Notes: a model not told the origin generated them from the sequence alone. Shown: positions 2,144 through 29,065, counted from the first letter of the stretch. The stretch: DNA of 43,617 bases from Candidatus Collierbacteria bacterium (GCA_023245265.1 JAHFKQ010000001.1:1-43617), one strand, 5' to 3'. A program made the numbers and translations.

Positions 2144-2261
2144 GGAAAAGGGTCGATGCGACAATCCCTTTCCTGTCAGGTAATAAGTAAATTTTAAACT
2201 ACTTAGGATATTACTCCCTGAATAGTGAATAGATTTGCAAAAAGATAGCACGAGTAATATT

Positions 2262-5480
<3,219 letters not shown>

Positions 5481-10311: not shown

Positions 10312-10598
10312 TCTACATCCGTCTGTTGTGCCATAATCTCCAGCCCTGCCACAACCACCTCTCTGGTGTGAAGCACCTTTCTCAATATCATGTGCCTCAC
10401 ATCCCGACTCTGAGCCGCCATAAAATGTTCTTGCATTAAGTTCAGTCCAAACTCCAGCAGTTCATCGGGAATCATAAACTTCTCGGTTCCTTCACCCAAA
10501 AACAGTTCCTTTGTCCAGCGCTTCATAGCATCAACCTCAATATCAGGGTTTGCCAAAACCTCCAAATCGTTGTTATTCCTAATTTTCACAAGCCTCAT
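10308..10598 (-). CDS. HD-domain phosphohydrolase, N-terminal part (carries the first His); split from 9736-10311
   Basis: ...RKVLHTREVVVAGLEIMAQQTDVD*. The His sits 34 aa from the HD dyad of the next ORF if the two are joined by a -1 shift. Confidence 0.55.
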   Translation of the reverse strand: MRLVKIRNNNDLEVLANPDIEVDAMKRWTKELFLGEGTEKFMIPDELLEFGLNLMQEHFMAAQSRDVRHMILRKVLHTREVVVAGLEIMAQQTDVD

Positions 10599-10608
10599 TT
10601 TACCTTAC

Positions 10609-10637
10609 TTGACAATTCTACTATCTTGCCCTATAGT
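10609..10637 (+). promoter_or_regulatory. Sigma70-type promoter
   Basis: TTGACA-N17-TATAGT. Downstream, CTTAC..TTCGT weakly resembles the GACTTACAAAGTTCGTC leader element. Confidence 0.6.
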
Positions 10638-10700
10638 AAACGAATCTTACTTTCGTACGCACCCTAAATCATTCCCTACCAATCCATTTCAAGGAGTCCC

Positions 10701-11354
10701 ATGGACATTAAGCAAATCAATGAGCTTGTGGCAGAAGGTATTCAGTTAACCAGGCTCTGGAACAATCCGGAGTCCACTGGCCGTTACTACCATAACGATG
10801 AACACGCAGAAATGGCACATAACTGCTTCTTCGAGATCGCCGTCAAGGCGAATTTGAATCAGCGCATCAGCTACGATGAGATCCTCCTCGGCCGCCTGGC
10901 TATAGCTTGGCATGATGTCATCCAAGGACAAGGGTCGACTCAAAACGAAACTAAAAGCGCCGACTTACTGGCCAAAGACATGGTCCGCTACGCCTTCTCC
11001 CCCGATCAGATTAACCAAGCCAGAGAGCTTATCCTTGGCACCATTACCAGTTTCGACGAGCAGGGCTATATGCATCAGAGCGCCGAACTAATTGCCACTC
11101 CGCTGGCTTTGCTTGTAGCCGACGCCGATCTCTGCTCACTCGGCGCTCCGGCACCCAAATTCGTCCTCATGTCCCAACGGCTGATTATGGAATTTGCCGG
11201 CAAAACCGATCTGAGCCCTGAAGAATGGCAAAAGGGCTGGGCTGGGCAAGTGAAGTTTATGACAGGCCGAACTTTTCTCACCCCTGAAGCCAACGAGCGC
11301 TGGGGACTGCGCTTAGGCCAAAACTTTGAGCTTGCCAAAACCCTGGCTCGATAA
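10701..11354 (+). CDS. HD-superfamily protein (COG4339-like predicted metal-dependent phosphohydrolase)
   Basis: YYHNDEHAEM...LAIAWHDVIQG...NETKSADLL pattern. SD AAGGAG. Confidence 0.7.
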   Translation: MDIKQINELVAEGIQLTRLWNNPESTGRYYHNDEHAEMAHNCFFEIAVKANLNQRISYDEILLGRLAIAWHDVIQGQGSTQNETKSADLLAKDMVRYAFSPDQINQARELILGTITSFDEQGYMHQSAELIATPLALLVADADLCSLGAPAPKFVLMSQRLIMEFAGKTDLSPEEWQKGWAGQVKFMTGRTFLTPEANERWGLRLGQNFELAKTLAR

Positions 11355-11375
11355 CCCGTCTCTCACTCTAATTTA

Positions 11376-11398
11376 GGCACCCGAAAGGGTGCCTTTTT
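11376..11398 (+). terminator. Rho-independent terminator
   Basis: GGCACCC-GAAA-GGGTGCC-TTTTT. Confidence 0.9.
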
Positions 11399-11418
11399 CG
11401 TGCTATATTAAACTCACT

Positions 11419-12186
11419 ATGACCGAAGAACGACAAGCAATTTTTTCTAAACTTCAAAAACATTCCTGGTTCAAAGCCACCGATCCAAAGCTAATAGACG
11501 AACTATCCAACTTAGCCGAAGATTACAACCCTTTTCTTTCCGATCTCTCCGAAAGACCGGACGAAATTGGCGAGCTCGATGTTCTCAAGCTTGTCAAGAT
11601 AGGCCACGGTCACTACATGATTATGCCCGTTTTTGAGGTCAGATCAAATATCACCAACCAAATTTTTACCTACGAATACTGCAGCTGGAAGACAGGCCGC
11701 AACCCCGGCATGCGTGTCTTAATTTTTCTGGAAAGAGATGGCGAAATTACCCATTTTGTCATTACCAACTCCTACAAATTCTCCGTTGCTCACTCTGCTT
11801 ATGACAGTGTTGGTGGTCTTTATCTTCACATATTTGAAAACAAGATTGTGAACCTCCCCAAAAAAATCGAAAATGAGATCCGTTTCCACCTTGGAGTCGA
11901 GAAAATCGAGTTCAAAAAAGTCACTGATCTTGGCCGATGTCACCCCGATTACGGGATGAGTAACAATCAGTCCGACTTGTTCGCGGCCACCATCGATATT
12001 TCCCATCTTCCCAATCTCGTCGTCAAAGAAGACTTCCGTACTACCCACAAGCCAGTCGGGGTCGAGATTAAAATAGTCCCCATTTCCGAGCTCAGAGACT
12101 ATATTCTGAACCAAATCGAGGATAACTACTTCTTATCCGGCATCTCCCGGGTTCTGGTTCATCCCGATTTTAGTCTCCAGATCTAG
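11419..12186 (+). CDS. Nudix-fold-like protein with a degenerate Nudix box (paralog of 15539-16333)
   Basis: The start was moved to ATG 11419 because the track start lies inside the terminator. It aligns by eye to 15539-16333 over the full length (WFKAT/WFQAT, VLKL, PVFEV/PIFEV, YDSVGGL/YDSIGGL). The region equivalent to REx2EExG reads ENEIRFHLG. Confidence 0.7.
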   Translation: MTEERQAIFSKLQKHSWFKATDPKLIDELSNLAEDYNPFLSDLSERPDEIGELDVLKLVKIGHGHYMIMPVFEVRSNITNQIFTYEYCSWKTGRNPGMRVLIFLERDGEITHFVITNSYKFSVAHSAYDSVGGLYLHIFENKIVNLPKKIENEIRFHLGVEKIEFKKVTDLGRCHPDYGMSNNQSDLFAATIDISHLPNLVVKEDFRTTHKPVGVEIKIVPISELRDYILNQIEDNYFLSGISRVLVHPDFSLQI

Positions 12187-12190
12187 GCTC

Positions 12191-12243
12191 TTGACAGGAA
12201 AAGGAACCTATAGTATCATTATCCCAGACTTAAAAAGTTCGAC
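12191..12243 (+). promoter_or_regulatory. Promoter TTGACA-N17-TATCAT plus conserved leader element GACTTAAAAAGTTCGAC (12227-12243)
   Basis: The element begins exactly 7 nt after the -10 hexamer, as in the copies at 13527 and 16382. Confidence 0.7.
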
Positions 12244-12438
12244 ATTTCAAAGTCAATATCTCGTTCCAAAGGAGCAACCTATGCCTCGTTAATTCGTGCC
12301 TGCAAGCTCAGCTCTACCCCTCACCCCTTGGCCACCTCATCAGATCTGTTTATCATTTTTCAATTCCTAATACCCTTAGAAGACTGAAAATAGTAAGCAT
12401 TCTATCCTCAATTCACGGTCAAACTCAAAGGAGCCATC

Positions 12439-13149
12439 TTGAACAGTCATCTGCCTTTCTTTGGATTAATCTCAAAACAAATATCATCAATTTTTACCGC
12501 CGTTCCTCCGAACCTAAACCGGAGCTGGCAAATCTCCCTTGCCGATGGCGAGGCCGAGATCATCGACGCCTCCGGCGACATCCATTTCGGCAAGCTAAAT
12601 AAGCTTTCCTTGGATCATCTCATCCTGAGTTCTGCTTTTGGCCAGCTGGTCTACGGCTTTTTAAATCAGTCGTGGGATCAATGGGCCTTTTTCGAAGGTA
12701 CCTCAGACCTCGAACCAGCCGGTGTTTGGATAGCCATGTTTACCAGAATTCAGGGGATTCTCCATGTTGGCGTCATCGAAGAGTCACGCCCTCTCATCCA
12801 AGGCCATTTCTTTGCCATTCCTCATGGTTTCGTTGATATGGGTGAGCAGGGGCACGAGGCCGCCATGAGAGAGTTACTGGAAGAAACCGGAGTCAAAGTC
12901 ACCCAAATCTATTCGTTAGGTTACCTAGGTCACAACACCGCTTTTTTTGGTGGTTCAACTTCAGGTGCCCATAGCGACGAAGGTTTCTTGGTCATTCTTG
13001 AAAATGAGCTTCAGACGGTAAAAATCGGCGTCAAAGAATCCACCTTGAAATGGATTCCAACCTCAGAATTTGTTCTTTCCGGCTATTGTGCCCCATCAAC
13101 TGCGGTTGTGGCCAAAGCCCTAGTCAAAGTCACAAAGGAGACTAAATGA
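12439..13149 (+). CDS. Nudix hydrolase (ADP-ribose pyrophosphatase-like)
   Basis: Perfect Nudix box GFVDMGEQGHEAAMRELLEETGV (Gx5Ex7REUxEExGU). TTG start 5 nt after AAAGGAG. Confidence 0.85.
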   Translation: MNSHLPFFGLISKQISSIFTAVPPNLNRSWQISLADGEAEIIDASGDIHFGKLNKLSLDHLILSSAFGQLVYGFLNQSWDQWAFFEGTSDLEPAGVWIAMFTRIQGILHVGVIEESRPLIQGHFFAIPHGFVDMGEQGHEAAMRELLEETGVKVTQIYSLGYLGHNTAFFGGSTSGAHSDEGFLVILENELQTVKIGVKESTLKWIPTSEFVLSGYCAPSTAVVAKALVKVTKETK

Positions 13150-13409
13150 TCATCAATCTCATCCTCGAGCTTTTCGTCCAGAACATTTTTGCCATCGCCG
13201 CTTGTTTGTTCTTTCTAATACTGATCATCGGGTCCACCAGAAACCAAAAACTAAAATCCACAGTCAAATGTAGTAAATGCAAAACACAGTTTACGGTTGA
13301 TCCACAACAGGTTCAAGTGTCCGCCGGTCAGCCATCTGGAATAGGAGATGATGGTCTCTCATACTGGATCGACTGTCCATATTGCCACGAGTCAAACTCA
13401 CCTTATTAA
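13146..13409 (+). CDS. Small membrane protein with a C-terminal zinc ribbon
   Basis: ATGA overlap with the Nudix gene. One TM helix. CSKC...(38 aa)...CPYC cysteine pairs. Confidence 0.65.
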   Translation: MIINLILELFVQNIFAIAACLFFLILIIGSTRNQKLKSTVKCSKCKTQFTVDPQQVQVSAGQPSGIGDDGLSYWIDCPYCHESNSPY

Positions 13410-13432
13410 GTCACTCGCCTAGCCTCCACTTA

Positions 13433-13458
13433 CCCACCTCAACCGAGGTGGGTTTTTT
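13433..13458 (+). terminator. Rho-independent terminator
   Basis: CCCACCTC-AACC-GAGGTGGG-TTTTTT. Confidence 0.9.
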
Positions 13459-13489
13459 GTGCCTTCTCCGCCTAGCCACGAACTCCCTC

Positions 13490-13543
13490 TTGCTTTTTGT
13501 CTAAGTTATAACTTATAATACTCGTTGACTTACAAGGTTCGAC
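13490..13543 (+). promoter_or_regulatory. Promoter TTGCTT-N18-TATAAT plus conserved leader element GACTTACAAGGTTCGAC (13527-13543)
   Basis: The element begins 7 nt after the -10 hexamer. A ~130-nt C/U-rich leader precedes the SD AAGGAGG. Confidence 0.7.
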
Positions 13544-13674
13544 CTTAAAATATTTCCCAGCGCGTGCCTATTTGGGCAGCCATCGAACCTATTTTTACCC
13601 CTTTCCCCTTCTTTCCAACCGTTTACCCGGTTGTTTCGTGTATCCCAATCCCCATACCTTAAGGAGGTATTCCC

Positions 13675-15060
13675 ATGTTTTTTTCAAAAATCCGTTCGTC
13701 TTGGCTCGCCTTATGGGCGGGCTTCCTGCATTTTATGTACCTCGATCGTCCTGCAAAGAATGCCGCCAAACCCAGTTTTTACACTCCCGAGGAGCTTCGC
13801 GAGAAGCTGAAGGACCGTTCATTCCAGCTCGAAGCCATCAACTGGATCGAAATGACGCTCCGCCCACTGGAAAATGACGCCATCTTTTTGGCAGTCGCCC
13901 AAAACCGACCTACCGATGCTCGTAACATTACCACTCGCGACTTCCGTCAAATTCTCGATCTGTTCGCCCCTTTCATTGAAAGTGGCACTCCCGCTCACGA
14001 AAAAGGCCATCACATTTTTGATGCCCTAGGCATAATGTCCCTGATTAGTAACGATCCCTGGATTGCCCGGGCTTACAGAAACGAAATCGATGCGGCAGCG
14101 CTAGCCGGCATGATCCACGATGGTCTGACCGGTGTTCAGCACCGTTACATCGACAACAATTGGGAGCTGGATCACGGAGAAATCTGGGCCCACGAAGTTT
14201 ATCGAATGCTAGAGGGTCTGGTAAGCCAGCCAGTCCGGCTACTTACCGCCTATTTTATCGCCACTCACCCACATCGTACCAAGGATGTCACTCTGGCTAG
14301 CGGATACATTCGTCGACCGTGGAATGTCAAGATCTTCTACTACGAAGATCGTCCTGTCCGCATCGGCGACCGCCTTACCAAATTCACTGATCGCCTTGAA
14401 AACGGTGGCGACTCGGCTTGCCATTTCACCCGGCACGCCCTGGCCAATGTCGATGGCGCCCTTGTTGGCGGTCTTGACCTCAATCATCTGGACGGGACCT
14501 ACAACTTCTCCAACTCTCTCAGTCGACTCTTTGCCCCTTCGTTAGGATCGATTTCCATGCCCTCACTCAAGGATGGTGAACCTGTTCTGAAAGATGGCCA
14601 ACCGGTCATGGAGAATGTGCCCAGCATGATACAACACCTAAAGGGCTATGCCGATTCTGCTGTTGCACGGCCGTATAGTCCCTACAACATGTACGACGAC
14701 TTTTCTCCCAACATGCGTTTTCTGATGGACTGGAAAATCGCCAACAACAAAAAATTGATCGAGTTGGTCCAAAACACTACCGGCACCCCTAACTTCGAGC
14801 TGTTTGTTCAACTCATGCAGATGAAGTCCGGCTATCCAAATAATGATCAAACGCAAAAAACCATCGAGCTAACTCGTGCCTTGTGGGAACGGACCTCTCC
14901 CGAGGATCAGGCACACTGGGCCCAAGCCTTCGAATTTGCCCTCGCCTCCTATTATGAGTGGCTCACCGTCTTGGAGACTCAAATTTCCCAAGCTACCGAC
15001 CCGACAGTCCTGGCCTTCCAGCCCTTAGTGGCCGAATTCATTTCTCAGGTCAAGGGCTAA
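13675..15060 (+). CDS. Large HD-domain-like protein (461 aa), function unknown
   Basis: KGHHIFDALGIMSL...(~30 aa)...LAGMIHDGLTG gives H...HD spacing. Later IATHPH. Strong SD. Confidence 0.65.
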   Translation: MFFSKIRSSWLALWAGFLHFMYLDRPAKNAAKPSFYTPEELREKLKDRSFQLEAINWIEMTLRPLENDAIFLAVAQNRPTDARNITTRDFRQILDLFAPFIESGTPAHEKGHHIFDALGIMSLISNDPWIARAYRNEIDAAALAGMIHDGLTGVQHRYIDNNWELDHGEIWAHEVYRMLEGLVSQPVRLLTAYFIATHPHRTKDVTLASGYIRRPWNVKIFYYEDRPVRIGDRLTKFTDRLENGGDSACHFTRHALANVDGALVGGLDLNHLDGTYNFSNSLSRLFAPSLGSISMPSLKDGEPVLKDGQPVMENVPSMIQHLKGYADSAVARPYSPYNMYDDFSPNMRFLMDWKIANNKKLIELVQNTTGTPNFELFVQLMQMKSGYPNNDQTQKTIELTRALWERTSPEDQAHWAQAFEFALASYYEWLTVLETQISQATDPTVLAFQPLVAEFISQVKG

Positions 15061-15061
15061 A

Positions 15062-15463
15062 ATGGGCTTCAGTGTCGATTACGAACCAAACTTTACCTCG
15101 ATCCAGTACTCGTATATCAAGCCAGATCAAGACATCCGGGTTCTAAACTGGAAAGAGTTCCCTTTCCTGGAGTCGGTCAAAGACACTCAAGCCATCTATT
15201 TTTCGGCTTCCACTGTGGGTGGCAATCATCGCCATCCTCGCACGGAATGGTATCTGGGTTTTGGGGATCTAATCATTTACTGGTTAGATACCACAGGCAA
15301 ACGACATCAGAGGCATTTAAATCCCCAGGGGAGGCTGTTACTAGTGAAGATCCCCCCTTATCTGCCCCACGCTGTCCGAAACCGCTCAGTCACCAATTCA
15401 GCCCTGCTCATTGAGCTGGCCGACGCTCCTCAGCACGATGTCGAGCGCATCAAAGTTTTCTAA
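15062..15463 (+). CDS. Small cupin-fold protein (RmlC/WxcM-like)
   Basis: Starts 1 nt after the upstream stop. GGNHRHPRTEWYLGFGDLIIYWLD...LVKIPPYLPHAVRN resembles sugar epimerase/isomerase cupins. Confidence 0.6.
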   Translation: MGFSVDYEPNFTSIQYSYIKPDQDIRVLNWKEFPFLESVKDTQAIYFSASTVGGNHRHPRTEWYLGFGDLIIYWLDTTGKRHQRHLNPQGRLLLVKIPPYLPHAVRNRSVTNSALLIELADAPQHDVERIKVF

Positions 15464-15470
15464 CTCTCAA

Positions 15471-15495
15471 CCCACCCCTTCGGGGGTGGGTTTTT
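15471..15495 (+). terminator. Rho-independent terminator
   Basis: CCCACCCC-TTCG-GGGGTGGG-TTTTT. Confidence 0.9.
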
Positions 15496-15538
15496 CTTGG
15501 TCTCTTGACATTCTTTTTTTGTTCTATAACATGAACCT

Positions 15539-16333
15539 ATGTCCACCGCATTTAACTTCGAAGCTTTTAGCTACACACTCCCTCCTAACCGTCAGCTTTT
15601 GGCTGCCAAGCTCATCGAGAAAAAATGGTTCCAAGCTACTTCACCCGAACTCCAGCAAGAAGTACTTACCCTCCCGGACGATCACGAAGGCTTTCTCTAC
15701 GATCTGAGCCATCGCCCGGATATAGTCGGTCATCTGACCGTCCTCAAACTTCTCAAAATCGTCCGTGGCGAGTTTTTGGTCACCCCCATTTTCGAGGTTC
15801 ACTCCGCCACCTCAGGTAAAACCTTCACCAAAGAATATGTCTGCTGGAAAATGGGCGCTTTCCCGGGTATCAAGGGTACTTTATTCGTTCGCTTACACGG
15901 CAACATCACTCACTTTATCACCATCCAAACCGACAAATTTCCCGTTGGTGCCCTCTGTTACGACTCCATTGGTGGACTTTTTCAATATGCCAAAGGTACC
16001 AACCTCGATTTACCCAACAAAGTCGAACAGCTCATCAAAGATAAGCTTGGTTTACAAGCACTCAAAATTCAGGAATTTATCGATCTGGGACACATCCAGT
16101 CCGATAACGGCCTGACGCCAAACTACCCCCAAATCTTTGCCGCGATTATCGACGGCGACGAAGCTGGGCACCTCTCAGCCCGCGAGATTGACCCCCAGGA
16201 TCGCGAACAGGCCAATTTCCGGATCCAGGTCGTACCCATCCAGGAGCTCCCCGAATACCTCCTCAGGGTCGACGACGCCTTTTTCCTGGCTACCTGTGCC
16301 CGCCTCTTAGCCAAACGGGTTATCACCCTCTAG
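15539..16333 (+). CDS. Nudix-fold-like protein with a degenerate Nudix box (paralog of 11419-12186)
   Basis: It aligns to 11419-12186 and, by eye, to the Nudix core of 12439-13149 (G..F.R..G.I.H..I). The box position reads VEQLIKDKLGL. It is preceded by TTGACA-N16-TAACAT-N6-ATG with no SD. Confidence 0.7.
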   Translation: MSTAFNFEAFSYTLPPNRQLLAAKLIEKKWFQATSPELQQEVLTLPDDHEGFLYDLSHRPDIVGHLTVLKLLKIVRGEFLVTPIFEVHSATSGKTFTKEYVCWKMGAFPGIKGTLFVRLHGNITHFITIQTDKFPVGALCYDSIGGLFQYAKGTNLDLPNKVEQLIKDKLGLQALKIQEFIDLGHIQSDNGLTPNYPQIFAAIIDGDEAGHLSAREIDPQDREQANFRIQVVPIQELPEYLLRVDDAFFLATCARLLAKRVITL

Positions 16334-16344
16334 GCACAGACCTC

Positions 16345-16398
16345 TTGACATATACTCTAGGCTGAAGCTATAATACCCCCAGACTTACAAAGTTCGTC
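16345..16398 (+). promoter_or_regulatory. Promoter TTGACA-N18-TATAAT plus conserved leader element GACTTACAAAGTTCGTC (16382-16398)
   Basis: The element begins 7 nt after the -10 hexamer. SD AAGGAG precedes ATG 16450. Confidence 0.75.
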
Positions 16399-16449
16399 TT
16401 TTACATCCGCTTTTCTCCGTTCTTCCACCCTATTTCTTAAGGAGTCCCT

Positions 16450-16851
16450 ATGTCAGTTATCAAAAATGTTCGTATTTCGTTTGCCGTCGCCTGGTATTCA
16501 AACCCAACAGTTGGCCAAGGCACTATTGACCTCAAAGAAGGCGAAGGTCACAAGACTAAAGGCTTCGAAATCTCCGCCGACCATCGCTACCTCACCGCCT
16601 GGTCATACGATCTTGAAGAAAAGTACCCCATGCGTTGTAAGGTCGGCCTCAAGCCCGGCTTTTTTACCCAGATTGGAAACTTGCTCAAAGGCAATCCCAT
16701 GTTTCGGACTCGCCCAAAGTATGTTTCCGTCCTCGTAACAACCCGCTTCCCTCTTAGCGCCGTAAAAAATATTTCTTTTAGCAACGACTGGGACGACTCG
16801 TCCTACTCTTTCTACGACGCCGACAAACTTTCCCCAAAGGAGAACAAATGA
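16450..16851 (+). CDS. Hypothetical protein (133 aa)
   Basis: Strong SD. ATGA overlap with the next gene. No recognisable motif. Confidence 0.6.
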   Translation: MSVIKNVRISFAVAWYSNPTVGQGTIDLKEGEGHKTKGFEISADHRYLTAWSYDLEEKYPMRCKVGLKPGFFTQIGNLLKGNPMFRTRPKYVSVLVTTRFPLSAVKNISFSNDWDDSSYSFYDADKLSPKENK

Positions 16852-17267
16852 AAACCTTGTTTTTCCTCGGCCTAGGATCTTGGATCATCCAAATTTTGTC
16901 GACTGGTCTTAGCTTGGCTTCGTTCAATCACATTAAGTCTCAGATCAATGATCCTGCCAGCCTGCCTCTTTGGTATCAGATTCTAGCTTGGGTTATAAAT
17001 TTATCCTCCGTCGGATATTTGATTTGTACCCTCTGGATCTTTTTTACATTTCAGAGTCCTGTGTTTATGATTTCGGTCATTCTGGCTGCAGTGATTATCG
17101 CTATTCGAATGCGACACGGGCAAAAGGTCCCGACCAAAATGAGTAAGGAAGAAATTGCCGACTTTAACTTGGATTTCAAAGGTATCCTCATCGTTTGGTT
17201 GATTACCTTGGAAGTCTCTTTCTACGGCGCAGTCCCCTACTTACTGCTTTTCATATTTACTCTCTAG
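16848..17267 (+). CDS. Hypothetical integral membrane protein (~4 TM)
   Basis: Translationally coupled to 16450-16851. Hydrophobic helices throughout. Confidence 0.6.
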   Translation: MKTLFFLGLGSWIIQILSTGLSLASFNHIKSQINDPASLPLWYQILAWVINLSSVGYLICTLWIFFTFQSPVFMISVILAAVIIAIRMRHGQKVPTKMSKEEIADFNLDFKGILIVWLITLEVSFYGAVPYLLLFIFTL

Positions 17268-19363
17268 TCAAGTTTCTTCCCCGCCTTCACCGGCGGGGTT
17301 TTTATTGGCAAAGTAAATTCAAAGGTTGTTCCCTTGCCCTCTACACTCGAAAAGCGTATTTCTCCCCCGGAGGACTCAATAATCGCTTTAGTGAGATAAA
17401 GTCCCAAGCCGGAACCTTCCGTAAATTTTTTCAGAGCATTGCTAGCACGGAAGAATTTTTGAAACATTCTCTCCTGTTCCTCCATCGGGATACCGATGCC
17501 ATTATCGCTAACTTCGGAAATTATCTTTCCATCTTTGGCGTAAACTTTGACAGTTATCTCGCCTTTCTCCCCAGTGTAGCGGATAGCATTCGAGATGAGG
17601 TTGGCGTACACATGACGGATTAAGTCAGCATCAATATTGATGATGGGTAGTTTTTCACTTACTTGATCAATAAAGACTTTACCTTGACCTTCAGGATTTA
17701 ACTCAAAGTCCCCGATTATCGATTTCACTAAAGTTTTTAAGTCAGTTGATTTTGGCATGACCGCAATCTTTCCGGACTCCATTCTACTCAGGCTCAATAA
17801 CGAGTTAACAATCGTGATTTCTCTTTGGTTGGATTCTTCAATTCGATCAACAAATTCTTTTTGTTTTTTTGACAGTGGACCACCATCACCATTTTTTAAC
17901 ATTTCAGTAAACCACTTCACCGCCGATAGTGGAGTCCGCAATTGGTGGCTGGCCAAGGAAATAAACTCGGTCTTTATTTTTTCAATCGCCCTTTCTTTAC
18001 TTAGATCTCTTTCAATCCCCACAAAGAAAAGCAATTTTTTTTGCTCGTCCAAAATCGGTGAGATATGCATTTCTGCTTCGTAAGACTCTCCATTTTTCCT
18101 CTTATTTGTTACCTCATCTTCAAATGGCATTTTTTCATCCCTAATTGTTCTCCACATTCTTTGATAATATTCTTTAGGCATATTGCCTCCCCACAGGGAA
18201 GGTTTCTTCCCAATAAGTTCGGCTTCCGTGTAACCGGTAATTTTCATGGCGGCCTTATTCACATAAATAATTGTGCCATCTATATTTGTTATCACCACTT
18301 GGTCGGAAACTCCATCCACTGCTTGCTTAAATTTCTTCAAATCTCGTGTCGCAAATTCTACCAAGCTCCCCGCCCTCCTGTCTGCCGAGACAAACGAATA
18401 AATACTCAAAAACCATAATATATTTAGAGAGAGAACCATGACCAAAGTAATTGTTGGTAAATTTTCTTCATAATCTGAAAGTTTATATAGCCTATCCGTA
18501 TCCAAAATAATCTTCATCTTTCGATTTAACAGATTAAAGTCTTTAGAAACTGTATGCATCGGTCTTTCCCCTTGTAGTGATCCGACACTCATTACTTTTT
18601 TGTCCCCATCAATAAGTGAATATCTTATGCCCGGCCTCGTGACAAACTCTTCTTTCAATCTGTCAACATTCAGCCAAACATCTATAAACCCGATCAACAT
18701 TTCATCTCTTTTCTCTATTGGTATTTCTTCAATATTTTCAATCTTAAAAATCGGCATAATTACTCCGTATCCAGTCTTCTTGCTCTGGGGAATGATTTCC
18801 TCTAGCCGACCCAACTCCGACATTACTGGTTGGTTTGTCTTTTCGGCTAAAAGCAAAGCCGCCATGGTATTTTCTGAAGTTTGCAAATCAAATCCCAGCA
18901 AGTCATTAATTTGTGGATCAATAGAGTAAAGGTGTTTAATTGGATAAATTGTAAGACTGTCTGTTTTTGGGAAGACTTGATAATTTTCATAGTCATCAAT
19001 TCCCGAAGACCTCATTTCTAACTCCATTTTTTTTAAGTCTTTACGGGCTATTTTTGGCACATATGCCAGGGAATAGTCTTGATGATTTTGATCACTTACT
19101 AAAGCTTTAAAATGGTCGTTCCAATCCCTTGGGTGATCTTCACTCAAACTGATCAGGCCTTTCAGGTCATAAAGCAGGTCCACCCCCCTATCTATTTTGT
19201 CTACCATAGTCTTCACCACATCATCCAGAGTTTTGGACAGCTCCGCAATCCTTCTGAGCTCCACTGACCGTTGGATATAAATCATTAACATCACCGATCC
19301 CACCATCAATACCAAACTAGTCGTACCAATTAAAAATAACCTCCCCAAGTGTTCAATTTTCAT
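17264..19363 (-). CDS. Sensor histidine kinase: TM, CHASE-like extracytoplasmic domain, TM, PAS, HisKA, HATPase_c
   Basis: H-box FISLASHQLRTPLSAV, N-box ANLISNAIRYT, G-boxes DNGIGIP and GSGLGL. PAS region VVITNIDGTIIYVNKAAMKITGY. A ~270-aa loop lies between the two TM helices. Confidence 0.92.
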   Translation of the reverse strand: MKIEHLGRLFLIGTTSLVLMVGSVMLMIYIQRSVELRRIAELSKTLDDVVKTMVDKIDRGVDLLYDLKGLISLSEDHPRDWNDHFKALVSDQNHQDYSLAYVPKIARKDLKKMELEMRSSGIDDYENYQVFPKTDSLTIYPIKHLYSIDPQINDLLGFDLQTSENTMAALLLAEKTNQPVMSELGRLEEIIPQSKKTGYGVIMPIFKIENIEEIPIEKRDEMLIGFIDVWLNVDRLKEEFVTRPGIRYSLIDGDKKVMSVGSLQGERPMHTVSKDFNLLNRKMKIILDTDRLYKLSDYEENLPTITLVMVLSLNILWFLSIYSFVSADRRAGSLVEFATRDLKKFKQAVDGVSDQVVITNIDGTIIYVNKAAMKITGYTEAELIGKKPSLWGGNMPKEYYQRMWRTIRDEKMPFEDEVTNKRKNGESYEAEMHISPILDEQKKLLFFVGIERDLSKERAIEKIKTEFISLASHQLRTPLSAVKWFTEMLKNGDGGPLSKKQKEFVDRIEESNQREITIVNSLLSLSRMESGKIAVMPKSTDLKTLVKSIIGDFELNPEGQGKVFIDQVSEKLPIINIDADLIRHVYANLISNAIRYTGEKGEITVKVYAKDGKIISEVSDNGIGIPMEEQERMFQKFFRASNALKKFTEGSGLGLYLTKAIIESSGGEIRFSSVEGKGTTFEFTLPIKTPPVKAGKKLD
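17279..17303 (+). terminator. Rho-independent terminator embedded in the 3' coding end of the convergent kinase gene
   Basis: CCCCGCC-TTCAC(C)-GGCGGGG-TTTTT. The same bases encode ...KTPPVKAGKK on the minus strand. Confidence 0.8.
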
Positions 19364-19364
19364 G

Positions 19365-19742
19365 TCAGCTACTCAGTTTATCTTTGGGACACATTTTTTT
19401 CAGTTCCTCATCTATGTTCGAAAGACCCACATCAGTTTTCATAAAGCATTTAGTCGCACCCATTTGAAGGACTCTTTCCATAGCATCAGGTAAATTAGTA
19501 ATTACAAGAATTGGGATGTTAGTCGTTTTTTGATTCTTTTTTAATTCTTTCAAAACATCCAAACCGTTTAACCTTCCCGGCATATAAATATCTAGCAAAA
19601 TCAGGTCCGGCTCAAAAGTATCAGCTTCTTTTACCCCCATCTCACCATCTGTCGCAATTCTTACATCATACTTCTCTTCAAATTTTCTTCGATATGCTTC
19701 ATTTAGTAACAAATCATCCTCAATGATGAGTAATTTTGCCAT
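19365..19742 (-). CDS. Single-domain response regulator (CheY-like receiver)
   Basis: LIIEDD...DLILLDIYMPG...ILVITN...K motifs. 1 nt upstream of the kinase gene. Confidence 0.9.
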   Translation of the reverse strand: MAKLLIIEDDLLLNEAYRRKFEEKYDVRIATDGEMGVKEADTFEPDLILLDIYMPGRLNGLDVLKELKKNQKTTNIPILVITNLPDAMERVLQMGATKCFMKTDVGLSNIDEELKKMCPKDKLSS

Positions 19743-25933: not shown

Positions 25934-25990
25934 TGTTCTTGTCGATATTCTACCATGTCTATAGGGTATTGTCCACCCATATTAGGCATC

Positions 25991-27354: not shown

Positions 27355-27384
27355 ATTCTACCATCTCTATAGGACATTTGTCAA
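27355..27384 (-). promoter_or_regulatory. Sigma70-type promoter for the small membrane protein gene
   Basis: TTGACA-N18-TAGAAT on the minus strand. Confidence 0.6.
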
Positions 27385-27554: not shown

Positions 27555-29047
<1,493 letters not shown>

Positions 29048-29065
29048 AAAAATTGAATAGATTAC

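Follow-up and report, generated by a model that had tools for sequence, protein, structure and literature searches.

A conserved promoter-proximal element shared by operons of a Candidatus Collierbacteria gene island, and its possible role as a 5′-terminal RNA module

Three neighbouring operons in a 43,617-nucleotide (nt) stretch of Candidatus Collierbacteria bacterium DNA (GCA_023245265.1, JAHFKQ010000001.1:1-43617; we call this whole stretch the window) carry near-identical copies of a short element placed directly behind their promoters. Judged from its conservation, position and distribution, the element is a real, selected and lineage-restricted regulatory signal, and clearly a functional one. 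The copies had been noticed in a sequence-only reading of the window, which left two possibilities for their role, an operator overlapping +1 or an RNA tag at the 5′ end of the transcripts. We lean towards the RNA tag, and hold with moderate confidence that the element is a transcribed 5′-terminal hairpin-plus-tail module which co-ordinates the mRNAs of the island and which, in one leader, competes with the long-range helix of an attenuator-like RNA. The operator we regard as possible and less probable.

An element with a fixed place behind the −10 box

The element was first described as a 17-nt motif, and its three copies lie on the plus strand of the window exactly where they had been placed, with the sequences given (Table 1). 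Recomputing the alignment again gave 14 of 17 positions invariant across the three copies, and 15 of 17 for each pair. Each copy begins 7 nt after the −10 hexamer (TATCAT, TATAAT and TATAAT) of a promoter whose −35 box (TTGACA, TTGCTT and TTGACA, respectively) stands 17-18 nt further upstream, that is, at about the predicted transcription start. Conservation runs ~8 nt past the 17-mer, to roughly +25, and the conserved unit is therefore ~25 nt long. No copies are to be expected by chance, as a degenerate pattern matched three times in the window and not once in 100 dinucleotide-preserving shuffles, and a covariance model scored the three copies at 34-40 bits against 8.7 bits for the next best site in the window. 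Pairwise identity is 88% in the element versus 12-38% in spacers, upstream regions and leaders. With flanks that are essentially unrelated, no recent duplication of whole intergenic regions has taken place, and the proposal that the element itself is selected is borne out here as well as by the cross-species comparisons below. The element does not occur in the other strong promoters of the window (7000+, 9159−, 15505+, 25975−, 27384− and 5611−). A degraded fourth copy had been suspected after the promoter at 10609-10637 (site 10644); this copy is not supported, as the covariance model did not detect it even at E ≤ 10, and to align it one must assume that 4 nt, and with them the 3′ arm of the hairpin described below, have been deleted.

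In order to follow the element in relatives, we compared contigs that encode homologues, at 41-61% identity, of the 461-amino-acid (aa) protein of the second operon, a family of 25 clusters (loci labelled L0xx). All compared relatives share the same island, with HAD-hydrolase or metallo-beta-lactamase genes on one side and the 709-aa gene and Dus on the other. Searching these syntenic loci without any −10 constraint gave one to five copies of the element per island, with ~21 further copies found in L002, L005, L006, L007 and L051-L055. Every copy in the relatives lies on the coding strand, directly after TTGACA-(16-19)-TAnnnT, and the fixed register seen in the window extends to all 36 distinct promoter contexts, the gap to the −10 box being 7 nt in 29 of them, 8 nt in six and 6 nt in one. 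The genes headed by the element belong to at least seven protein families without mutual BLASTP similarity, and orthology of one leader therefore cannot explain it. Across species, spacers and leaders have been replaced while 22-25 nt of the element are invariant or nearly so. For the second copy in particular, 22-25 nt are the same in all of 11 distinct promoters of 461-aa gene orthologues, in which information content is low in the spacer and discriminator, maximal from element position 1 to ~+22, and followed by a variable leader.

These comparisons effectively exclude that the element is a functionless residue of promoter duplication, left where paralogous promoters were copied with their genes. 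There is one clear case of such copying, in a relative (L009, also L045) that carries the whole promoter of the 461-aa gene a second time ~1.1 kb upstream, before another gene (109-133 versus 1195-1219 in L009), and spacer motifs are common to some promoter classes. Against this, the window flanks stand at random-level identity, the element is near-invariant between species whose 461-aa proteins have diverged as far as stated above, and the divergence of the proteins excludes recent horizontal copying among the relatives' loci. In addition, the copy that is decaying in L009 is the duplicated one, which has drifted (GACTTATAAGGTCAGTC / GGTCAGTC), with its stem kept and its CG lost.

We also ran promoter-anchored exact-pattern scans over one genome per species (185,579 species) and over 241 million metagenome records. 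Both returned the same clade together with unrelated matches at or below chance, the expectation being a hand estimate based on how degenerate the pattern is and how large the collections are. The out-of-clade matches (L011, L017-L024, L031, L035, L037, L040, L041, L047 and L049) have no −35 box and no gene context, and were discarded. A Collierbacteria genome of 1.09 Mb on a single contig has just two matches to the promoter-anchored pattern, which lie 700 bp from each other, both in the island. Based on these scans we consider the element clade-restricted and its regulon to be the island itself, in keeping with the earlier view that it marks the co-located operons of one island. Three of the contigs with a Collierbacteria-type island, L009, L014 and L053 (CAZGSP010000046.1, CAYHNG010000015.1 and DATIKJ010000033.1), are filed under the names ‘uncultured Pseudomonadales’ and ‘Spirochaetia bacterium’, and are probably mis-binned or mislabelled.

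Hairpin, tail and the leader of the 461-aa gene

Over 24 distinct variants the consensus of the element begins with GACYT, a 3-6 nt loop and ARGTY, and goes on with one base, GWC-YTT-WA and an A/T-rich end. Positions 14-15 are an invariant CG in close relatives and AG or AC in distant ones. One L053 promoter holds the second block alone (GACCTTTAAAT), which suggests that the element is built of two modules. The first of these is pairable. The sequence-only reading saw no obvious palindrome or strong hairpin, and thereby missed a small GACTT-NNN-AAGTY hairpin or palindrome whose 4-5 bp stem, formed by positions 1-5 with 9-13, is the most conserved feature across relatives. In the first copy of the window the hairpin occupies nt 1-13 (GACTT/AAGTT), and nt 1-5 can alternatively pair with AAGTC at 12249-12253.

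Covariation among the relatives' variants, an analysis that had been suggested with the first description, shows 96.7% of the stem cells paired. At pair 1/13 we counted 11 G-C, 10 G·U and three A-U, and at pair 4/10 there are 14 U-A, six U·G and four C-G; among all 120 stem cells, 16 are G·U wobbles and none is A·C or C·A. This bears directly on the operator, which would have a repressor, probably a dimer, bind GACTT-N3-AAGTC and the adjacent GAC-YTT in duplex DNA from +1 to ~+25, and block open-complex formation or promoter clearance from a position like that of lac O1 or CIRCE (controlling inverted repeat of chaperone expression). In such a duplex the 16 wobble cells are G·T-type departures from the dyad, with none of the A·C type; they break the symmetry of the DNA yet keep the pair in the sense-strand RNA. 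Loop length varies even inside one genome, with 13-nt and 14-nt versions in L051 (GACTTACAAAGTC and GACTTAAAACAGTC), and an L053 version has a 5-nt loop (GACTTAACTAGTC). As half-site spacing this amounts to a difference of 1 bp, once 2 bp, among copies of the same genome, which a hairpin tolerates and a duplex dyad operator tolerates poorly, and which therefore counts for the RNA. The conserved block, moreover, never crosses the predicted start site to reach upstream of +1, and the stem always begins at +1/+2. The covariation score was reached by one of 500 shuffles, a control that ignores relatedness; for this reason, and because the independent events number about four, we take the stem covariation as suggestive, not conclusive, evidence for an RNA hairpin.

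Several other signals were considered for the same sequence. An alternative hairpin B (nt 8-11 with 17-20, AARG/CYTT) is 96% paired in close relatives; over the wider set the figure drops to 87.5%, the variants of L051 and L053 having lost it, so that it may be a secondary or alternative pairing and not a universal feature. Variation at positions 1, 4, 7, 10, 13 and 16 recalls a hidden coding signal; stops (TAA, TAG) occur in the matching frame on both strands, and the spacing stems from symmetry around the hairpin loop, not from codon periodicity. T-loop or tRNA mimicry by GGTTCGA was rejected, as its sole match is a chance tRNA T-arm and the CG is not kept in distant relatives. An SOS operator of the LexA/Cheo-box kind (CGAAC-N4-GTTCG) would find a single GTTCG half, replaced by GTCAG, GTCAC or GTTAG in distant relatives. 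The sequences likewise do not fit extracytoplasmic-function (ECF) sigma, sigma-54, SOS-box or CIRCE readings.

Behind the second copy, sequence comparison and fold prediction give a structured leader of ~150 nt for the 461-aa gene, composed of a P1 helix, a P2 hairpin enclosed by it, a C/U-rich tract and a P3 hairpin with a U-run (Table 1). In 13 of 13 aligned leaders, element nt 10-15 (GGUUCG) are complementary to an invariant CGAACC, and P1 extends to 6-11 bp. In L054, the most distant of these relatives (protein 41% identical), the element is GGTTTGAC and its partner has changed from GTCGAAC to GTCAAAC, a compensatory replacement of C-G by U-A. The distance between the two strands ranges over 37-81 nt and is not in helical phase, which together with the compensatory change points to pairing in RNA and away from a duplex operator. 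At sequence level, these features indicate that the element forms part of the transcript and takes part in RNA pairing, in this leader at the least. P2 keeps its position in relatives with a different sequence, and P3 is conserved with covariation (ACAG/CUGU, CCGUG/CACGG and CCGUGC/GCACGG) and looks like a weak terminator or attenuator. In the minimum-energy fold the C/U-rich tract is paired with the Shine-Dalgarno sequence.

A further, very stable hairpin (~−14 kcal/mol, GGCTCGCC-TTA-TGGGCGGGCT) lies at 13700-13725, ~+175 from the element, just inside where the 461-aa coding region begins. Relatives have it there too, and it may reflect no more than conserved codons of an N-terminal helix.

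Weighing the RNA module against its rivals

The RNA module is favoured over the operator because the conserved block starts sharply at +1/+2, the stem tolerates wobble pairs without admitting A·C, the loop is variable, and P1 pairs with a compensatory change. In the mechanism we propose, transcription from the strong sigma-70-type promoters would start at the first G of the element or one base earlier, as the 6-8 nt distance to the −10 box implies, and each RNA would have a stem-loop of 4-5 bp at its head (G-ACYU, a 3-6 nt loop, ARGU-Y), with a conserved single-stranded tail directly behind it, xGWC-YUUWA(A/U-rich). This shared 5′ module would act after initiation. The terminal hairpin could shield the 5′ end against 5′-end-dependent decay, while hairpin and sequence-conserved tail together might serve as a common binding platform for a putative factor and thereby bring the operons of the island under joint control. 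In the leader of the 461-aa gene the state of the module, whether free, bound or paired, would set the conformation of the attenuator and of the ribosome-binding site, with possible consequences for attenuation and translation.

A number of observations weigh against this proposal. The computed hairpin is weak, at −0.2 to −2.6 kcal/mol at 37 °C and −2.4 to −5.6 kcal/mol at 12 °C, and the covariation comes down to roughly four independent events by our own count and the one compensatory change in P1. The presumed start of transcription is itself read from the −10 distance. One distant leader of the 461-aa gene (L051) has no P1 partner, in L052 and L053 other parts of the element find other complements downstream, and outside the 461-aa gene the leaders share no higher-order fold. 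Neither a DNA-binding nor an RNA-binding domain was recognisable in the proteins of the island or its neighbours. Finally, GACTT-NNN-AAGTC is a perfect DNA palindrome of 5+5 bp in 11 of the 24 variants, and the strong conservation of sequence in stem, loop and tail alike would also fit a DNA-binding protein. These last two points are among those that keep the operator in consideration. Its site, +1 to +25, is where repressors classically bind; the promoters are near-consensus, with 10-12 of 12 matches, and should therefore be constitutively strong unless repressed; and a tiny regulon restricted to one island suits a local transcription factor. The absence of a recognisable helix-turn-helix or other DNA-binding domain counts against the operator too, as does the nature of the two universally present paralogues of the island, which have a NUDIX fold with an acidic N-terminus.

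The element might also act on RNA polymerase itself, as an initial-transcribed-sequence or promoter-proximal pause element, which seems to us improbable. The nascent hairpin and the G...YUU/A-rich tract would then tune promoter escape, or a hairpin-stabilised pause at ~+20 to +25 would load an elongation factor, in a logic analogous to that of ops/RfaH or of lambda Q and the nut sites. The fixed register of 6-8 nt to the −10 box would suit such a signal, the hairpin ends at +13 with an invariant T19-T20 ~7 nt later, and the terminator-like P3 with its U-run could be read through by antitermination. What speaks against it is that the element does not match the ops, boxA or boxB consensus (compared by eye), that neither the window nor the gene tables of the relatives' loci hold a NusG paralogue or a Q/N-like gene, and that most operons with the element have one or two genes, leaving little work for processive antitermination.

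Among known systems, the element comes nearest in function to the csp cold box, the 5′-terminal stabiliser hairpins and CIRCE, and is a member of none of them. A cold box consists of a 5′-proximal stem-loop with an A/U-rich stretch behind it, and it influences autoregulation and the stability of the mRNA. The likeness, by analogy and not by homology, lies in a conserved 5′-proximal sequence on several separately transcribed mRNAs that form a co-regulated set, the cold box being a short conserved 5′ untranslated region sequence near the 5′ end of the mRNAs of several E. coli genes, cspA, cspB, cspG and cspI (PMC6719143). Unlike there, the genes downstream of our element have no cold-shock domain of the CspA family, its sequence is different, it starts at +1/+2 where the cold box lies a few bases in, its host lineage is uncultivated, and no link to temperature was shown. 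The stabiliser stem-loops of the ompA and papA type (Emory, Bouvet & Belasco 1992, as cited in PMC3997798) resemble it in geometry, since a stem 6-8 nt after the −10 box predicts a 5′ overhang of 0-1 nt, a geometry that blocks 5′-end-dependent RNases and pyrophosphohydrolase. Pairing has likewise been maintained in evolution here, with two pairs changed on both sides, if in few independent events. The known stabilisers are defined by structure and not by sequence, and are usually more stable, whereas the loop and the 12-nt tail of our element are conserved in sequence, which implies specific recognition.

CIRCE works at two levels, as an operator in the DNA and as an element of the mRNA. Like the element described here, this HrcA-associated signal of heat-shock operons is a conserved inverted repeat between start site and start codon in several operons of the housekeeping sigma factor; it differs in being a 9-bp inverted repeat (TTAGCACTC-N9-GAGTGCTAA) found before chaperone genes across phyla, at variable positions relative to +1, whereas our element has arms of 4-5 bp, a spacer of 3-6 nt, a fixed register, one narrow clade and no chaperone genes downstream. 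The leader of the 461-aa gene, and it alone, also resembles a riboswitch or attenuator leader, in that its very first nucleotides form the P1 that closes a structured domain, with a terminator-like hairpin and a Shine-Dalgarno sequence open to sequestration further downstream; the 5′ strand of this P1 is common to unrelated short leaders, which is untypical of riboswitches. A scan of the whole window against Rfam 15 at gathering thresholds returned rRNAs and tRNAs only, and an E-value scan (E ≤ 5) of 10550-16500 one chance-level snoRNA match (E=4.2).

The island, its proteins and its surroundings

The window is a piece of a chromosome of the Candidate Phyla Radiation (CPR, or Patescibacteria), with its closest named protein homologues in Candidatus Collierbacteria genome bins. 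The island is a plus-strand run of operons at 10.6-17.3 kb, each with a sigma-70-type promoter and an intrinsic terminator, in the order 217-aa gene, 255-aa gene, NUDIX and zinc-ribbon genes, 461-aa and 133-aa genes, 264-aa gene, and 133-aa and 139-aa genes (Table 1).

Table 1. Positions in the window of the element copies, their promoters and operons, and the parts of the 461-aa gene leader
Feature	Position	Strand	Description
Promoter of the NUDIX operon	12191..12219	+	sigma-70-type; TTGACA, 17 nt, TATCAT (12214-12219)
Element copy 1	12227..12251	+	17-mer 12227-12243, GACTTAAAAAGTTCGAC; tail ATTTCAAA; covariance model 33.9 bits
Operon after copy 1	12439..13409	+	NUDIX hydrolase 12439-13149; 87-aa zinc-ribbon membrane protein 13146-13409; terminator 13432-13453
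Promoter of the 461-aa gene operon	13490..13519	+	TTGCTT, 18 nt, TATAAT (13514-13519)
Element copy 2, class I	13527..13551	+	17-mer 13527-13543, GACTTACAAGGTTCGAC; whole element GACTTACAAGGTTCGACCTTAAAAT; 39.9 bits
P2	13562..13580	+	G+C-rich hairpin
P1, 3′ strand	13583..13590	+	TCGAACCT; pairs with element nt 9-16, AGGTTCGA
C/U-rich tract	13598..13616	+	CCCCTTTCCCCTTCTTTCC
P3	13616..13638	+	hairpin CAACCG-TTTACC-CGGTTG, then TTTCG
Operon after copy 2	13675..15463	+	461-aa orphan protein 13675-15060; 133-aa protein 15062-15463; terminator 15469-15492
Promoter of the third operon	16345..16374	+	TTGACA, 18 nt, TATAAT (16369-16374); 12/12 consensus matches
Element copy 3	16382..16406	+	17-mer 16382-16398, GACTTACAAAGTTCGTC; whole element GACTTACAAAGTTCGTCTTTTACAT; 37.2 bits
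Operon after copy 3	16450..17267	+	133-aa basic protein; 139-aa membrane protein; terminator 17279-17298

The proteins encoded downstream of the element gave Pfam matches to NUDIX and zinc ribbon only. The 255-aa (11419-12186) and 264-aa (15539-16333) proteins are paralogues at 38% identity, have no Pfam match, and are encoded in every island examined, transcribed without the element. The 264-aa gene is apparently leaderless, its ATG at 15539 being the seventh base after a −10 hexamer TAACAT (region 15505-15541), so that leaderless and long-leader mRNAs would alternate within one island; the start region of the 255-aa gene (~11400-11421) also lacks the element. Both paralogues are confidently predicted to have an ADP-ribose-pyrophosphatase-like NUDIX fold (predicted local distance difference test, pLDDT, 89; Foldseek E ~1e-9 to NUDT5 and NudF). 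Their Nudix box is degenerate, with NEIRFH in place of REx2EE, and they carry an acidic, helical N-terminal extension; on the strength of these models they may be non-catalytic. Regulation of the NrtR type, by a Nudix domain fused to a winged-helix DNA-binding domain and acting on a palindromic operator, was rejected, as this extension is no winged helix and the canonical NUDIX protein matches NtrR only at E=0.011, far below the cut-off. For the 461-aa protein the fold search gave no significant structural neighbour, with a weak resemblance to the PDE4 catalytic domain (probability ~0.5-0.6, E>0.3). A sequence search of the PDB with the island proteins gave no informative matches, and annotation of the island with PADLOC for defence systems nothing meaningful. 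In all, the island looks like one of nucleotide or ADP-ribose-related metabolism.

NUDIX enzymes such as RppH and NudC act on the 5′ ends of RNA, so that the degenerate-box paralogues could conceivably have turned into sequence-specific 5′-end binders. In a more specific version of the RNA module, which we put forward as an unlikely but coherent idea, the 25 nt would be a 5′-end ‘address label’ read by an island protein, the paralogues being the most intriguing candidates, and the leader of the 461-aa gene would be a ligand- or protein-sensing attenuator whose P1 competes for the label.

Some features of the surroundings are recorded here in their own right. The NUDIX operon leader (212 nt) contains a three-codon mini open reading frame, ATG CCT CGT TAA, at 12281-12292, preceded by a good Shine-Dalgarno sequence (AAAGGAG, 12268-12274). 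The motif CCTATAG / CTCTAGG is found repeatedly within spacers of island promoters or just 5′ of the −35 box (10630, 12207 and 16355, plus strand), in relatives as TTATAGGNTATAMT or CTATAGGTCTTG, and in two unrelated minus-strand promoters at 25959-25965 and 27367-27373 (TTGACAaatgtCCTATAGagatggTAGAAT and TGGACAataccCTATAGacatggTAGAAT). We had considered CTATAGG / CCTATAG as an operator of the island promoters; since it also occurs in the spacers of the non-island promoters 27384(−) and 25975(−), it is not specific to the element, and it may either belong to promoters in general or mark where a global factor binds. Directly after the island, the minus strand (17264-19742) encodes a histidine kinase with CHASE and PAS domains and a response regulator that consists of a receiver domain alone. 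The pair is absent from this place in most syntenic relatives and present in L055 and L051, and it may provide sensory input to the island, but its regulator lacks a DNA-binding output domain. The 23S (2260-5480, −) and 16S (27555-29050, −) rRNA genes are unlinked, ~22 kb apart with protein genes between them; tRNA-Ala adjoins the former, and 2 kb separate tRNA-Ile from the latter. At 3221 nt the 23S match is longer than its 2925-nt model, indicating an insertion of ~300 nt, and at the corresponding edge in one relative there is a fragment of a LAGLIDADG gene (L008 17807-18001). The whole window has a strongly negative GC skew (−0.09 to −0.33 in each 2-kb segment), independent of gene strand.

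Gene regulation in the CPR is almost unexplored, as these organisms are uncultivated and encode few recognisable regulators. The scope of the present finding is narrow, one clade and one island, and the element is a lineage-specific addition to a familiar kind of cis-regulatory signal. Within that scope it is a clean cis-element with the support of evolution behind it, and its regulon can be defined as two to five operons of orphan genes, among them NUDIX-fold and possibly HD/phosphodiesterase-like proteins, and a candidate structured leader RNA is gained with it. Promoters in this lineage prove to be of the classical sigma-70 type, and leadered mRNAs occur beside apparently leaderless ones. 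The element thus offers a rare, well-supported way into CPR gene regulation and a concrete handle for finding a CPR regulator. If it were an address label as proposed above, it would represent a previously undescribed architecture of post-transcriptional regulon in CPR bacteria.

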